Shown piece after piece: positions 3 through 42,158 of a stretch of 64,000 bases of DNA. Below the pieces are notes generated by a model. That model saw nothing but the letters and a program-made list of their open reading frames with translations, was not told the DNA's origin and searched no databases. Within the stretch, counting starts at the first letter, position 1; each line of letters opens with the position of its first letter. Source of the DNA: a virus; the IMG/VR virus record IMGVR_UViG_3300017963_000203, positions 32,001 to 96,000 of that record; one strand, 5' to 3'. The translations under genes and the position numbers were made by a program.

Positions 3-338
3 TCATCGGTTCCTCCCGAACCAGGTCTTGACTCGCTGAACGAGTCCGGGTTTCCGTTGCCGGAACGACGCGTATCTGCGCCGCATAGGCTTCAGCGACT
101 TGATCCGTTTTCCAACGTCGCTTGCCATGCTCTTGGCCGACTCCATCACGGACCCGGACTCGATTGGTTTTTCCTCAGAACCACCCCCGGGGGTGGGAAC
201 TACTTCGACCTGCGGAGCCTTCGTGTAGCCCCTGTATACCTCTTTCAGTTTACTCTGAAGGTCTCGAAGTTCCTTCTTTCCGAAGAACGCATTCTTCTCG
301 AGCTCATCCAGAAATCCTGTTATGAAAGCTTCGTTCAT
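3..338 (-). CDS. small basic protein with N-terminal FxxGFxDELxKxA tag (putative internal head protein)
   Basis: ATG at 338 overlaps the upstream stop (TGATG); begins MNEAFITGFLDELEKNA. Confidence 0.75.
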   Translation of the reverse strand: MNEAFITGFLDELEKNAFFGKKELRDLQSKLKEVYRGYTKAPQVEVVPTPGGGSEEKPIESGSVMESAKSMASDVGKRIKSLKPMRRRYASFRQRKPGLVQRVKTWFGRNR

Positions 339-1483
339 CAGGCTGCCACGCCGCGACCCTGAATCTTCGCCGCGGTCCTCTTGGCCCACGGAATGGCTGC
401 ACCCCACCCGCCACCGGGCGGCTTCGCTGCGGGAGGTGCGCCCACTCCTGCGCCGGCCGCAGCCCTGCCCAAGATGCCTGTGGGCTTCGACGGAGGAGTC
501 CCGGTCGACGGTGTCGAGCCGATTCCCTTCGCCGCGCCCGCCATGACACCTGTGGGTTTCGCTGGCGCGCCGGCCGGACCGCCGCCGGGGCCAAACCTTC
601 CGGCCGCGATGTTCCGTTCACGGATTTTTGCGCCTGCGGAAGCGACCGATGGAGCAGCGGGCTTCGCCAACGGTTTCGCCGGCGTGGCCGCATCGATCTT
701 CCGGAACCTGGCCACGTCCTCACGGCCGCTGGCCCTCGCCGCGGCCCTGAGCTCGTTGCGACGCCGGATTTTCTTTCCGAGCGCAGCGAACGGATCGGCT
801 TTCGGCTGGGCAGCCGCCGGAGGTGCCGTCTTCTTGGCCGCTTGAAGATCCTTCCAGCTCTTTGCTCCCCATCCGGACATGGGCCGGCTGCTGACCTTCT
901 TTCCGGTATCGGCCACAGCCGGAGCCTTCTTGGGCTGCGCCACGGGAGGTGTGGCCTTCTTCGCTCCGATCTGGCGCGTGCCCACCCCCGGAATGGAGTA
1001 GGTGCCCTTTCCGGGCTTGCCCTTCCCCAGTCCGTGGCGCCCCATGATGCGCTTGGCACGCCCTGTCCGTACACGACCCACCGTGGCCTGGTCGGTTCCT
1101 TTGATGCGTCCGAAACGCAAGGAGCCGCCTTCAGCCGTGGATTTGAAGCCGCCGGTGCCTGTGGTCTTGCCGCCGGTGGCCAAGAGTTTCTTCGCGGCCG
1201 CCTGGCGAGCGCCGCCGATGCTGGCCTTGGCCCGGGACATGAACCGCTGCTTGGCCGCTCCGGAGAGATCCCGCCAGCCGGCGCTCTTCTCGAGCTCGTC
1301 GTAAAGGCCGGCGAAGAAGGCCTCCTCGAGGGAAGACATGGGGCCCTCTTCGTCCTCCGAAGCGAACTTGCTGAAGAACCCCGCCATGAAGATGTCCTCG
1401 GCGGTCGGTGCCGGGTCGGCGGGCGCGTCTGCCGCCTTCTCGAGCTCGTCCACGAGCCCACCCAGGAACACGTCGTAGTTCAT
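338..1483 (-). CDS. Ala/Gly/Lys-rich basic protein with repeated N-terminal tag (putative internal head/DNA-binding protein)
   Basis: 381 aa; FLGGLVDELEKAA, FMAGFFSKFAS and FFAGLYDELEKSA, then a low-complexity basic region. Confidence 0.75.
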   Translation of the reverse strand: MNYDVFLGGLVDELEKAADAPADPAPTAEDIFMAGFFSKFASEDEEGPMSSLEEAFFAGLYDELEKSAGWRDLSGAAKQRFMSRAKASIGGARQAAAKKLLATGGKTTGTGGFKSTAEGGSLRFGRIKGTDQATVGRVRTGRAKRIMGRHGLGKGKPGKGTYSIPGVGTRQIGAKKATPPVAQPKKAPAVADTGKKVSSRPMSGWGAKSWKDLQAAKKTAPPAAAQPKADPFAALGKKIRRRNELRAAARASGREDVARFRKIDAATPAKPLAKPAAPSVASAGAKIRERNIAAGRFGPGGGPAGAPAKPTGVMAGAAKGIGSTPSTGTPPSKPTGILGRAAAGAGVGAPPAAKPPGGGWGAAIPWAKRTAAKIQGRGVAA

Positions 1484-1492
1484 GTCGGCCTC

Positions 1493-40982: not shown

Positions 40983-41596
40983 TTCTTGAATCCGATCGCC
41001 TTGGAGATCCTGGAGAAGGTTGCCGGCCTGATCTTGGGAATCTTACCGAACCTTATCTTAGGAGCCTTCGGCTCCGGCGGCTGCACATTGATGATAACGG
41101 GACCTTTGATCGTTCCGGGCTTTTTCTTCCGCTTCTTCCCGAACAATTCGCTCAGAGAGGCCGCAGCCTCGGCCGCCAGGAAAGCCGCGCCAACTCCGAT
41201 CGACCCCGTGCCCATGCCTCGGCCGAGTCGTGTTTTGGATGCAAAACGATGCGCTTTCGGCCCGAACTTGCCCATCTCAGCCAGCGCATGGGCACCCTCT
41301 CCAGCCAGTGCCGCGTAACCGATCGCCTGCGTCAGCGGGTGGTGGACGATACTCGCGAATGACGCGACTTTCTTCAGGGGGCGCACAGGCTTCGACGGAA
41401 CGGACGGCTTGGGCTGGAACTTCGGAAACCGTCTTTTGAGCATAGTCTCTATTCTTCCCGGGACCTGCTTGTCGAAGATTTCACTCAGACCGTGCTCGTA
41501 CTTGGCCTGAAGCGCGTCGAAACGCTTCTTCAGACGACCTTCCACGGAGGCCGCCTTGAACAGCTCGTCGATGAATCCTGCGATGAACGGGTTCAT
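40979..41596 (-). CDS. tagged basic protein
   Basis: MNPFIAGFIDELFKAAS; LKKVAS; Gly/Ala hydrophobic segments. Confidence 0.75.
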   Translation of the reverse strand: MNPFIAGFIDELFKAASVEGRLKKRFDALQAKYEHGLSEIFDKQVPGRIETMLKRRFPKFQPKPSVPSKPVRPLKKVASFASIVHHPLTQAIGYAALAGEGAHALAEMGKFGPKAHRFASKTRLGRGMGTGSIGVGAAFLAAEAAASLSELFGKKRKKKPGTIKGPVIINVQPPEPKAPKIRFGKIPKIRPATFSRISKAIGFKK

Positions 41597-41919
41597 GCCG
41601 TGCTCTTGATGAATTTGTGGTATCGACTGATAGCGCCCTTGAGACTCTTCGCATAGTTCAGGGCCCGATGCGTGTGAGTCTCAAACCATGTCTTTCCGTT
41701 GATGACCGCCTTGCTGACAGCCGGAGTCTTCTTCCGCTTCCCGTCCCTTCCGAAATGGAAGTTCCAGACGGCCTTGGACTTCATAACCTTTTTCCGCTCC
41801 TCCGGCGTCAACGGAACGCGGCTCTTCACGAAGGACTTCCAGTCCGGGTGTCCCTTCGGCGCCCCCGGCTTGGCGATCTTCTCGATCTCGTCCAAAAAGC
41901 CGTACATGAACGGATTCAT
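41593..41919 (-). CDS. tagged basic protein
   Basis: MNPFMYGFLDEIEKIA followed by a globular basic domain. Confidence 0.75.
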   Translation of the reverse strand: MNPFMYGFLDEIEKIAKPGAPKGHPDWKSFVKSRVPLTPEERKKVMKSKAVWNFHFGRDGKRKKTPAVSKAVINGKTWFETHTHRALNYAKSLKGAISRYHKFIKSTA

Positions 41920-42158
41920 TACGCCGGACCTTGTCTCTGCGGAAGAGGCGTTGCCCCTCCGATGGTCTTCTTGGGGTTGAGGGGGTCCTTCATGATCCCC
42001 TCCTTGAGCGTCTTCTCATAGTTGGCCTTATCGAGCCCGGAGGTCTGGCCGATGAACCTCTCGAACGACTCCTTCGGCTGCTTGATGCCGGCAATCGTCT
42101 GTTGCTGGGCATACTTGCTAATCTCGTCCAGAAACCCCCGCATGAAAGCGGCGTTCAT
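41919..42158 (-). CDS. tagged small protein
   Basis: MNAAFMRGFLDEISKYA. Confidence 0.75.
   Translation of the reverse strand: MNAAFMRGFLDEISKYAQQQTIAGIKQPKESFERFIGQTSGLDKANYEKTLKEGIMKDPLNPKKTIGGATPLPQRQGPA

Follow-up and report, generated by a model that had tools for sequence, protein, structure and literature searches.

A recurrent 13-residue tag on late proteins of an uncultured phage: a candidate two-part, cleavable head-loading leader

Why does one 13-residue motif, F-x-x-G-[FL]-x-D-E-[LI]-x-K-x-[A/G], recur in phage proteins that otherwise appear unrelated? The window in which it was noticed, i.e., the whole stretch of 64,000 nucleotides that was analysed, holds ten copies that a first-pass annotation interpreted as an independent address label, combined with a cleavage site, that loads diverse effectors into the phage head. 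All ten translate as written in the minus-strand open reading frames (ORFs) given for them, and their coordinates were right; as a census of the tag they fell short, because five tagged proteins lie beyond the window (genome positions 31782-32006, 104708-105028, 108766-109011, 112473-113294, and 119588-122428). The copies in the window and two context genes are as follows.

288..326, minus strand: FITGFLDELEKNA, N-terminal (aa 5-17) in a 111-aa basic protein (3-338, pI 10.2)
1430..1468, minus strand: FLGGLVDELEKAA, N-terminal (aa 6-18) in a 381-aa low-complexity basic protein (338-1483)
1361-1390, minus strand: FMAGFFSKFA, a weak third copy in protein 338-1483
1280..1318, minus strand: FFAGLYDELEKSA, internal (aa 56-68) in protein 338-1483
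9992..10030, minus strand: FLQGFEDELEKKG, internal (aa 250-262) in a 428-aa protein (9491-10777)
14097..14135, minus strand: FAKGFVAELKKTA, internal (aa 46-58) in an acidic 139-aa protein (13851-14270)
19575..19613, minus strand: FTAGFLAGIEKEA, internal (aa 98-110) in a 300-aa protein (19002-19904)
19218..19256, minus strand: FLDGFLDELDKVG, internal (aa 217-229) in protein 19002-19904
19943..21907, minus strand: large terminase subunit, a context gene that marks the block as a structural/packaging module
39099..40982, minus strand: portal protein, 627 aa, with three tagged genes immediately upstream
41549..41587, minus strand: FIAGFIDELFKAA, N-terminal (aa 4-16) in a 205-aa basic protein (40979-41596)
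41872..41910, minus strand: FMYGFLDEIEKIA, N-terminal (aa 4-16) in a 108-aa protein (41593-41919), member of the cargo family with swapped leaders
42108..42146, minus strand: FMRGFLDEISKYA, N-terminal (aa 5-17) in a 79-aa protein (41919-42158)

Distribution of the tag and nature of its bearers

The whole 130,894-bp contig (68% complete, 132 called proteins) was scanned, proteins being labelled late from the gene content of strand blocks. In six frames, a strict regular expression recovered 14 copies and a loose one 15, all of them on the minus strand and inside real genes, with none on the plus strand or in other frames; with a slightly wider expression the count rose to 17 in 12 proteins (8 copies N-terminal, 9 internal, and up to four in a single 946-aa protein), beyond which a SET-domain protein bears one variant tag. 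A hidden Markov model (HMM) trained on these 15 detected a further two, weaker copies across the contig, and its best plus-strand score was only E 2.9. Copies are confined to minus-strand blocks with terminase, capsid, portal, and tail genes, and both regular expressions and HMM found zero tags in the plus-strand blocks of replication genes (DnaB, PolA, ligase, and similar). The first-pass statement that plus-strand early genes lack the motif is upheld over the whole contig, and the HMM scan that it had proposed returned hits only in structural-gene strand blocks, in line with its expectation of a late-only motif.

Chance, composition or a translated DNA-level repeat (promoter, ribosome-binding region or recombination site) could in principle produce such a series, helices resembling D-E-L-E-K being generally abundant and 56 single DNA-pattern matches occurring in 596 Gb of prokaryote genomes. 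However, chance would yield about 0.01 copies where 14-15 were observed: when each of the 132 proteins was shuffled 2000 times, the count averaged 0.0095 (strict) or 0.016 (loose) and never exceeded 1. The copies occupy one reading frame of real genes only, 9 of them are internal, and codon identity among identical residues of the tag copies (0.594) is close to that expected from codon usage (0.558), so that synonymous sites are randomised and selection acts on the peptide. The 52 prokaryote matches recovered by regular expression are single, nearly all internal and, as read through without counting, mostly devoid of the K-x-[A/G] end. The frame, shuffle and codon results refute this explanation, whose remaining probability is negligible. 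A double-glycine bacteriocin leader was also considered and rejected, as the tag has no G-G, shows the wrong spacing and sits on late phage proteins.

The proteins that bear the tag form a distinctive class. Their median pI is 10.4 (13 tagged proteins) vs. 5.2 for the 48 untagged late proteins, and 12 of the 13 have a pI of at least 9.2, as the earlier description of usually very basic sequences implied; the sole non-basic one is the 139-aa protein 13851-14270, located directly downstream of the protease gene, the protease-adjacent orthologues of which retain the motif in other contigs. Tagged proteins are hypervariable: only 3 of 13 have a match with at least 50% coverage in the syntenic relative G004, compared with 42 of 48 untagged late proteins (26 of the 32 that do not exceed 400 aa). 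Searches of the tagged proteins against PHROGs and Pfam gave almost no matches. The domains found behind the tag, namely a SET domain (30.6 bits, cut-off 22.4), a rubrerythrin-like domain (27.9 bits, cut-off 22.8), and DUF5661 (score under its cut-off), are mutually unrelated, which bears out the view of the cargo as unrelated proteins. The rubrerythrin-like part also resembles the encapsulin ferritin-like cargo EncB (E 3e-14) and, as a ferritin-like module, TIGR04535 (E 9.7e-11), both under the curated cut-offs. In the structural model of the 108-aa protein, residues 3-14 are predicted as a low-confidence helix and residues 15-26 as coil ahead of a confident domain (residues 27-107), an arrangement that suggests that the tag is an element separate from the cargo fold; Foldseek returned no match at E ≤0.001 for this domain.

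Local context differs from one copy to the next. For the ORF first drawn as 9491-10750, a GTG at 10777 is a possible upstream start; in its product, FLQGFEDELEKKG is immediately preceded by MKKTA and followed by FTLIELMM, and at the equivalent place after the capsid gene G004 carries a separate 70-aa ORF that begins with the tag. FTLIELMM and the Gly-rich hydrophobic stretches of several tagged proteins could point to a membrane or export signal, i.e., an amphipathic helix directing proteins to the membrane, to secretion or to pilin processing, for ejection, lysis or a prepilin-like role, since the G-FTLIELMM junction resembles a prepilin site. Against this, the prepilin model TIGR02532 scores 14.6 bits vs. 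a cut-off of 16.3 on protein 9491-10777 and matches 11 of 24 positions, the G004 counterpart has no prepilin-like sequence, and the tag is charged (D-E-x-E-K), precedes mostly soluble basic or enzymatic domains, and also occurs inside polyproteins, making such a signal highly improbable. The 300-aa protein 19002-19904 lies directly downstream of the large terminase gene, with FRKSA three residues before FLDGFLDELDKVG, and the 205-aa protein 40979-41596 lies immediately upstream of the portal gene, whose product aligns over 71% of its length with the portal annotated in phage Arash (27% identity, E 4e-55). Portal binding, as the three adjoining tagged genes might imply, was dropped as an interpretation: the adjacency is also found in G005 and absent from the close relative G004.

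At least 530 IMG/VR contigs encode the protease family described below. Elsewhere, in G002, 19 ORFs carry the tag, which is mostly at the N-terminus, and they form tandem arrays; the median pI is 9.2 for tagged proteins vs. 6.3. Among 80 protease-bearing loci, the tag HMM gave 35 hits of at least 10 bits within 10 kb of the protease gene, in 19 loci, and decoy hits amounted to 0. The nearest cultured relatives, Arash and Vibrio phage D69, have one weak copy or none; this and the 19 of 80 loci indicate that the protease family does not require the extended half of the tag. In distant relatives, a conserved small protease-adjacent protein carries the same motif internally.

The head-maturation protease and the short K-x-A/G site

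A short motif that agrees with the C-terminal half of the tag, [LI]-x-K-x-[A/G], recurs at the domain borders of the protease, at the capsid N-terminus, and in late proteins. The features concerned are the following.

14284..15819, minus strand: head-maturation protease, 511 aa, predicted herpes assemblin/T4 gp21 fold
15694-15708, minus strand: protease motif site FEKTA, of the domain border/linker set
15034-15048, minus strand: protease motif site LRKVA, of the same set
14947-14961, minus strand: protease motif site FVKVA, of the same set
10838..12028, minus strand: major capsid protein, 396 aa, with motif LTKLG at aa 27-31 (11936-11950)

The protease comprises a catalytic domain (about aa 45-265), a disordered linker, and a helical C-terminal domain. 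Comparison of its model with 48,161 chains, using an aligner independent of Foldseek, ranked the protease of varicella-zoster virus (VZV) first (1vzv_A, Z 10.2, rmsd 2.8, 116 aligned residues) and T4 gp21 second (5jbl_A, Z 9.5, rmsd 3.0, 131 aligned), followed by 8j3s_A (Z 6.5) and 1fl1_A (Z 5.8), with unrelated rows at about 6 or below. On these model-based scores, the catalytic domain is assigned the herpes assemblin/T4 gp21 fold. H131 and S191 (in S-M-G), the candidate catalytic residues, are invariant across 42 protease sequences. Foldseek vs. the PDB gave nothing at E ≤0.001, sequence searches of solved structures gave no match, no Pfam family matched the protease or its 42 homologues, and PF03420 (T4 gp21, Peptidase_S77) was not found in the 68% complete contig. 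A co-fold of the protease with the tagged 108-aa cargo, for which both scores were 0.00, counts neither for nor against their interaction.

Within the protease, K40, A42, K260, and A262 are each conserved in at least 90% of the 42 homologues and lie in disordered stretches at the edges of the folded domain. In the capsid protein, LTKLG stands 12-13 residues ahead of a conserved QQKLRE, and Phi-x-K-x-[AGS] occupies this position near the N-terminus in 111 of 114 capsid homologues and in gp226 of phage Arash. Across the contig, [LIMFV]-x-K-x-[AG] occurs 137 times in late proteins vs. 60.4 ± 7.4 in shuffles, and 37 times in early proteins vs. 40.2; the first 50 residues contain a site in 27 of 61 late proteins vs. 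3 of 71 early ones. The scaffold-like Arash proteins gp220, gp223, and gp225 have 10, 8, and 6 sites, respectively. On this pattern, the K-x-A/G motif resembles a cleavage code read by the phage's own protease. Such a code would be a departure, since every phage protease of this fold studied so far is reported to cut after Glu (PMC5694885). Since [LVI]-D-E, a match to the T4 rule, is present in the tag as well, the cut could instead lie within it; this is less likely, because the capsid, protease and scaffold sites have only K-x-A/G in common. Our best guess for the scissile bond is after the A/G, where the next residue is variable (A, F, D, G, E, S, K, Q, or V). The open-access literature yielded nothing relevant for a DELEK phage capsid tag or for a prohead protease with a K-X-A code.

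This code fits equally well with the tag being a propeptide for cleavage only, either as extended protease recognition or as an acidic mask under which very basic DNA-binding cargo would stay inert until it leaves the cytoplasm; entry into the head would then depend on features such as charge or co-condensation with scaffold or DNA. The occurrence of D-E-x-E on strongly basic proteins agrees with a mask, and no partner was found for the N-terminal half. However, the sites of the capsid, scaffold-like proteins and protease lack the F-x-x-G-F half, which is thus not needed for site recognition, and the conserved tag positions F3, G6, F7, D9, and E10 lie 5 to 12 residues before the K, further upstream than protease subsites usually reach. 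A propeptide without a loading role therefore seems rather unlikely.

Leader types and a proposed mechanism

The 108-aa cargo family provides a natural experiment linking leader type to protease type. Permissive regular expressions classified the leader ahead of the conserved domain in its 77 homologues as K-x-A only in 41 and as [LIM]-x-E only in 21. Protease content was compared in 23 large records out of 68 loci, 27 of the 68 being left unparsed by the script; these 23 records are mutually related and represent 18 distinct cargo sequences. All nine records with a K-x-A leader encode the present protease family and none encodes PF03420, whereas none of the 14 with an L-x-E leader encodes the present family and five encode PF03420, including both that are at least 90% complete. 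Leader type thus appears, from these sequence comparisons, to follow the protease type of the host phage in this cargo family.

The swap also bears on whether the tag is cut at all. Tag and short K-x-A site might instead be uncleaved interaction helices that bind a shared head component (capsid interior, portal or scaffold) in the manner of encapsulin cargo-loading peptides or scaffold-coat contacts. An amphipathic helix modelled apart from the cargo fold would suit this role, as would the internal motif of the conserved small protease-adjacent protein in distant relatives. So would the Arash virion data: Table 2 of the Arash paper gives 100% coverage for the site-bearing gp221, gp223, and gp224. 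Taken literally, full coverage argues against full fragment removal in Arash. However, the sample lists as many as 116 proteins as virion-associated, the passages of that paper on the virion make no mention of a protease or cleavage, and a coverage table cannot settle processing. On the other hand, sites sit in disordered linkers precisely at the borders of the protease catalytic domain, many occur in scaffold-like proteins (Arash gp220, gp223, and gp225), internal tags are bracketed by two sites, and leader type tracks protease type and not capsid type alone. We consider uncleaved helices unlikely.

The reading that we favour, with somewhat better than even confidence, is that the tag is a two-part cleavable loading leader working like the T4 capsid targeting sequence (CTS). 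Its C-terminal half, [LI]-x-K-x-[A/G], would be recognised by the head-maturation protease that the phage encodes, the same short site serving in the N-terminal propeptide of the capsid protein, in scaffold-like proteins and at the domain borders of the protease itself. The N-terminal half, F-x-x-G-[FL]-x-D-E, predicted to form one amphipathic helix together with the C-terminal half and restricted to the cargo class, most likely docks cargo to the assembling prohead core, which would lead to its enclosure. Removal of the leader by the protease would then free small basic proteins and enzymes in the head, to exit with the DNA; cutting, its exact bond, docking and the presence of cargo in virions are the steps we infer. 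In larger proteins, internal tags and a second upstream site would mark the module borders of polyproteins, an idea already voiced in the first-pass annotation and now supported by comparison, since in 6 of the 9 internal copies a second site ends 0-9 residues upstream. That annotation's view of a loading and cleavage label gains from the late, basic, and hypervariable cargo, the protease-like K-x-A/G code and the match between leader and protease type. Its term "independent" was too strong: a protease of the T4 gp21/assemblin fold and the presence of the same cargo domain behind L-x-E leaders elsewhere make the system a variant of the T4 type. Its word "effectors" is best read as a candidate role for the cargo.

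A bolder version, which as a joint claim is possible rather than probable, describes a modular phage-head "zip code" with separate "cut here" and "load me" halves, leader swapping, a packaging handle and a link to encapsulins. Here, K-x-A would be read by an unstudied branch of the assemblin/gp21 proteases, F-x-x-G-F-x-D-E would copy the motif of the small protease-adjacent core protein, and cargo domains would cross lineages, exchanging K-x-A for L-x-E leaders to fit the protease. If true, the tag would offer a handle for packaging chosen proteins in widespread 130-200-kb environmental phages, and the tagged encapsulin-type ferritin module would tie phage loading to the origin of encapsulin cargo systems.

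Comparison with known loading and maturation systems

In T4, the CTS is a short leader on the internal proteins IPI-III, Alt, and gp24 that the prohead protease gp21 is reported to remove (PMC3012670, PMC5694885). Both systems place a short leader (10-20 residues) on diverse, hypervariable, basic proteins, which are head-internal in T4 and presumably so here; in both, the leader ends at the site of the head protease (putatively in this phage), and the proteases share a predicted fold. The same cargo domain moreover occurs with L-x-E leaders in PF03420-encoding records. The T4-type trait of one short leader on unrelated proteins is found here as 17 copies in 12 proteins plus the variant, with a virion location that is presumed. 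Conversely, the proposed code is Phi-x-K-x-A/G where T4 cuts after Glu, the protease is a 511-aa protein with a linker and a helical C-terminal domain that falls outside Pfam families, and tags are also internal, up to four per protein, on about 13 proteins. We know of no sequence likeness between the T4 leader and this tag. An (L/I)-x-E site cut by a PF03420 protease was not found, the conserved site being Phi-x-K-x-A/G; since PF03420 was found neither in the contig nor in any of the nine K-x-A records, the system would be T4-like in function and not a member by sequence.

In the giant phages phiKZ, 201phi2-1, and SPN3US, a gp21-like protease (gp175/gp245) acts at A/S/G-x-E sites on many head and ejection proteins, with several sites per propeptide and self-cleavage of the protease (PMC5694885, PMC10052503). 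The phiKZ-like phages and the present relative Arash are likewise described as carrying RNA polymerase in their virions. The reported giant-phage propeptides differ in being mostly long (111-254 residues), in having no single stereotyped 13-residue motif and in being cut after Glu.

Herpesvirus assemblin (UL26) provides the best structural match (VZV protease, Z 10.2). Herpesvirus proteases cut between Ala and Ser, a rule resembled here by a small residue at the presumed P1 that is often followed by Ser. The present system differs in belonging to a phage, in the Lys conserved two residues before the small residue, and in its putative class of cargo leaders, which herpesviruses are not known to have. 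The order of protease, linker and scaffold-like C-terminal part is also comparable, and the conserved site after the protease domain would correspond to the release site (PMC4498786).

Encapsulins offer a further parallel, in that a short portable peptide sends unrelated cargo into an HK97-fold shell, as loading would do here, and one tagged module resembles the ferritin-like cargo EncB, under the curated cut-off. The encapsulin peptides differ in their consensus sequences and in their position, which is mostly at the C-terminus; they attach to the inner face of the HK97-fold shell protein and stay uncleaved.

Cargo choice for phage capsids has been worked out experimentally mainly for T4. The large uncultured clade to which the present phage belongs most likely has a second loading system that can be read from sequence, with a different protease code and a stereotyped tag that together would make packaged cargo predictable from sequence alone. 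The cargo so predicted comprises a SET-domain protein, a ferritin-like module, histone-like basic proteins and many unknowns, which are candidates for early-acting anti-defence or takeover proteins.

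Occurrence of the tag and its genomic setting

The 13-residue tag FxxG[FL]xDE[LI]xKx[AG], whose [LI]-x-K-x-[A/G] end is referred to here as the K-x-A half, occurs across the whole contig in 14 strict or 15 loose copies, as counted by regular expressions over six frames. A profile HMM trained on the 15 copies recovered two further, weaker ones, and a slightly broader pattern brings the total to 17, spread over 12 proteins, with 8 copies at N-termini and 9 internal; a thirteenth tagged protein carries a variant form. Chance expectation is far lower: when each of the 132 called proteins was shuffled 2000 times, the mean count was 0.0095 to 0.016 and never exceeded one. 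All ten copies named in the first-pass annotation translate exactly as given at the named minus-strand ORFs, and its claim that the motif is absent from plus-strand early genes holds contig-wide: all copies lie on the minus strand inside genuine genes, the six-frame scan of the entire contig found none in other frames or on the plus strand, and the best plus-strand HMM score reached only E 2.9. The consensus is x-A-F-x-x-G-F-L-D-E-L-E-K-x-A, with G6 and K13 invariant and F3 and E10 present in at least 90% of the copies in this genome. N-terminal copies begin 3-5 residues past the start codon, and six of the eight proteins start with Met-Asn. Codon pairs at identical tag residues are themselves identical in 59.4% of cases vs. 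55.8% expected from codon usage, hence conservation of the tag at the peptide level.

The virus contig (130,894 bp, 60% G+C, terminal repeat absent, 68% complete by CheckV estimate), whose bases 32001-96000 make up the window, alternates between strand blocks. Minus-strand blocks hold the large terminase, the capsid protein, the portal, tail-like proteins and a fused beta-beta' RNA polymerase, and proteins located in these structural-gene blocks are called "late," a label drawn from gene content; plus-strand blocks encode DnaB, a two-piece PolA, a helicase, and RecA-like, NAD ligase, thymidylate-synthase-like, Thg1 and PAPS-reductase-like proteins. Genes were called simply, by codon usage. No close cultured relative was found, the nearest being Salmonella phage Arash and Vibrio phages D69, D181, and D148 (portal ~27% and protease 39-44% identical). 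The RNA polymerase, a single 2064-aa ORF within the structural block (window 26318-32512, minus strand), joins beta and beta' domains (Pfam Rpb2_6, Rpb1_2, Rpb1_5, and others) and has neither a tag nor a marked surplus of K-x-A sites; in Arash, separate beta and beta' subunits are listed among the most abundant proteins of the particle preparation. DNA polymerase A is split over two ORFs 5′ of the window (L001:7247-8554 and L001:9616-10887, genome coordinates), which cover positions 13-124 and 127-380 of Pfam DNA_pol_A. Judging from their domains, three plus-strand genes may indicate repair of tRNA and modification of DNA bases:

window 37632-38471, plus strand: Thg1-like tRNA-His guanylyltransferase
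window 45662-47245, plus strand: 527-aa protein with a thymidylate-synthase domain in its C-terminal half only
window 54890-56020, plus strand: PAPS-reductase-domain protein

Putative cargo proteins and spread of the tag

Tagged proteins had been described as otherwise unrelated and usually very basic, and both descriptions were borne out: the sequence after each tag differs, and the pI is at least 9.2 in 12 of 13 tagged proteins, the exception being an acidic 139-aa protein encoded directly after the protease gene. Their median pI is 10.4 (n = 13), vs. 5.2 for untagged minus-strand proteins (n = 48) and 6.1 for plus-strand proteins. Sequence comparison indicates rapid turnover of the tagged proteins. 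In the syntenic relative G004, whose capsid protein is 83% identical, hits covering at least 50% of the query were obtained for 3/13 tagged proteins, 42/48 untagged late proteins (26/32 when restricted to lengths up to 400 aa) and 20/71 early proteins. Orthologues nonetheless keep the tag pattern despite residue changes, e.g., FMYGFLDEIEKIA in the studied contig and FFEAFADEMVKLA in G004. Behind the tags lie a SET domain, DUF5661 with a rubrerythrin-like module, Ala/Lys/Pro-rich low-complexity tails and the domain of a 108-aa protein (window 41593-41919, minus strand), for which a Foldseek structure search found no matching fold. In the model of this 108-aa protein, a low-confidence helix (aa 3-14) and a coil (aa 15-26) precede a separate, confident alpha/beta domain (aa 27-107), so the tag is predicted to be an appendage outside the cargo fold. 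Among the tagged proteins outside the window are the following two:

L004:8588-11428 (genome 119588-122428): basic polyprotein of 946 aa carrying the tag four times
L004:1473-2294 (genome 112473-113294): basic protein of 273 aa in which a variant tag is combined with a SET methyltransferase domain at the C-terminus

The 946-aa polyprotein consists of DUF5661, a tag, a ferritin-like module, then more tags and basic modules. The module after its first tag (aa 181-266) matches the encapsulin-cargo models EncB (E 3e-14, 53 bits against a cut-off of 90) and TIGR04535 (E 9.7e-11) below their curated cut-offs, and also Pfam Rubrerythrin; if such a ferritin-like module is indeed packaged in the phage head, it would constitute a link to encapsulins. 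The 273-aa protein, with the variant tag A-F-M-T-G-L-L-D-E-L-D-V-Q-L-S-K-K-A and a SET domain that passes the Pfam cut-off (E 4.9e-7), is possibly a packaged protein methyltransferase.

In the tagged protein at window 9491-10777, the segment F-T-L-I-E-L-M-M-L-L (aa 263-272, window 9962-9991) stands directly behind the E-K-K-G of the tag and resembles the mature N-terminus of type IV pilins; the predicted cut after the tag's G would therefore produce a pilin-like end with no need for prepilin peptidase. At 14.6 bits, the score of the prepilin model for this protein stays under its 16.3 cut-off. The closest relative, L044, reads E-K-K-G|L-T-I-I-E-L-L-A at this spot, and the stretch is missing from the G004 counterpart.

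Beyond this genome, the tag DNA pattern was found in 14 stretches of 11 IMG/VR contigs, several with 2-3 copies; whole-record HMM scans of five records gave 4, 13, 6, 6, and 4 matches, and the protease is encoded in four of the five tag-bearing records searched, the fifth being a 31% fragment. The relative G002 (capsid ~57% identical) has 19 tagged ORFs, 18 of them on a single strand, with mostly N-terminal tags, tandem runs of 6, 3, and 5 tagged genes and a median pI of 9.2 vs. 6.3. Around the protease in 80 loci, drawn from at least 530 contigs that encode it, the HMM, which was trained on the studied contig alone and under-detects variants, gave 35 hits of at least 10 bits in 19 loci, vs. 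none in reversed-sequence decoys; 33/35 share the protease strand, and in 21/35 a Met lies no more than 7 residues upstream. The tag may have been borrowed from a conserved core protein, since a small protease-adjacent protein of distant loci retains (G)-R-x-x-A-R-G-F-x-D-E-L-x-K-x-A internally. The tag DNA pattern yielded 56 single matches across 596 Gb of prokaryote genomes, which, read through rather than systematically counted, are nearly all internal and mostly without the K-x-[A/G] end. Arash and D69 contain one weak copy at most. The N-terminus of Arash gp221 (L032:5272-5823), M-N-H-N-E-E-L-L-K-G-L-R-E-G-L-V-D-G-L-L-K-A-A|G, looks like a degenerate tag ending in K-x-A; gp221 is among the proteins reported from the particle preparation and offers a handle for testing the leader idea in a cultured phage.

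The K-x-A half and the head protease

Sites resembling the K-x-A half extend to other late proteins. The capsid protein (window 10838-12028, minus strand) has L-T-K-L-G at aa 27-31, a position at which Phi-x-K-x-[AGS] is shared by 111 of 114 homologues (consensus G-G-E-A-L-E-K-V-G, followed by a conserved Q-x-K-L-R-E) and where Arash gp226 has L-V-K-E-A; the Arash head-module proteins gp220, gp223, and gp225 contain 10, 8, and 6 sites. With permissive regular expressions, late proteins contain 137 instances of [LIMFV]-x-K-x-[AG] vs. 60.4 ± 7.4 in shuffled ones (early, 37 vs. 40.2), Asp or Glu precedes the Lys 44 times vs. 7.1 (early, 7 vs. 5.8), and a site lies within the first 50 residues of 27/61 late vs. 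3/71 early proteins.

The 511-aa protease (window 14284-15819, minus strand) has 307 homologues at E ≤ 0.001 and no assigned Pfam family. In its model, a confident domain (aa 45-265) follows a disordered N-terminus (1-42) and is joined by a likewise disordered linker (266-322) to a C-terminal domain that is helical. Foldseek returned no match; in an independent search of 48,161 chains, the top matches were VZV protease (Z 10.2, rmsd 2.8, 116 aa) and T4 gp21 (Z 9.5, rmsd 3.0, 131 aa), while HCMV and KSHV proteases scored Z 6.5 and 5.8. H131 and S191 are invariant in a 42-sequence alignment, and K40/A42 (F-E-K-T-A) and K260/A262 (L-R-K-V-A), at both edges of the catalytic domain, are kept in at least 90% of these sequences; additional x-K-[TV]-A-S sites lie within the linker. 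Several homologues (among P0079, P0087, P0088, P0090, P0099, and others) reach 855-887 aa and bear the intein/homing-endonuclease domains PF14528, PF05203, and PF14890, further ones bear PF18823, and in three near-identical records the match is broken by a single in-frame TGA.

The K-x-A half looks, from this distribution, like the cleavage code of the head protease. In T4 and phiKZ-type phages, accounts of head maturation describe a protease that shortens the capsid protein, breaks up the scaffold and also cleaves itself (PMC5694885, PMC10052503), and the pattern of sites in the capsid, scaffold-like proteins and protease matches such processing. However, these enzymes are described as all cleaving after Glu (PMC5694885), in contrast to the K-x-A/G code proposed here, and the tag itself contains [LVI]-D-E, so that a T4-like cut inside the tag could occur instead. 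Some proteins with such sites are entered at full coverage in the proteome table of Arash, for a preparation of 116 listed proteins that was not analysed for processing.

Leader swap and a proposed model of cargo loading

By permissive regular expressions, the leader just ahead of the conserved domain in 77 homologues of the 108-aa cargo ends in Phi-x-K/R-x-[AGS] only in 41, in [LIM]-x-E only in 21 (e.g., M-K-L-R-E-L-L-E), in both in 8 and in neither in 3, and is absent or very short in 4; scripted classes over 68 IMG/VR loci were L-x-E 21, K-x-A 10, both 3 and neither 7, with 27 unparsed. Leader type tracks the resident protease, as among 23 records of ~84 kb or more searched whole, some related to one another, the window's protease family is present in 9/9 with a K-x-A-type leader (including two "both" records and L146, an IMG/VR locus classed by eye afterwards) vs. 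0/14 with an L-x-E leader, or 7/7 vs. 0/11 by distinct cargo sequences. Conversely, PF03420 (T4 gp21) is found in 5/14 L-x-E records, including both that are at least 90% complete, and in 0/9 K-x-A records; neither protease was detected in the nine other L-x-E records, which are fragments. Such a correspondence would be expected of a cleaved leader, and it supports K-x-A as the code of the window's protease family.

With K-x-A as the code, the short site would act as the "cut" signal, and the long tag would combine it with an upstream half confined to the cargo class. This upstream half is presumably dispensable for site recognition, because it is absent from the capsid, scaffold-like and protease sites; its separate role would most simply be docking to the prohead core. 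In six of nine internal tags, a second site ends 0-9 residues upstream: a first cut there could expose the internal tag near a new N-terminus, or paired cuts could excise it, and this arrangement suits polyproteins built of modules, the 946-aa protein among them.

Neither the tag nor a protease with a K-x-A code was found described in the open-access literature. The proposed docking role resembles that of the T4 CTS as described in PMC3012670 and PMC5694885, and the system as a whole is of an already known kind, exemplified by the T4 CTS with gp21, phiKZ/SPN3US propeptides and herpes assemblin sites. The new elements are a cargo tag of stereotyped 13-residue form, the bracketing of its internal copies, the hypervariable nature of the cargo and a leader swap tied to protease type.
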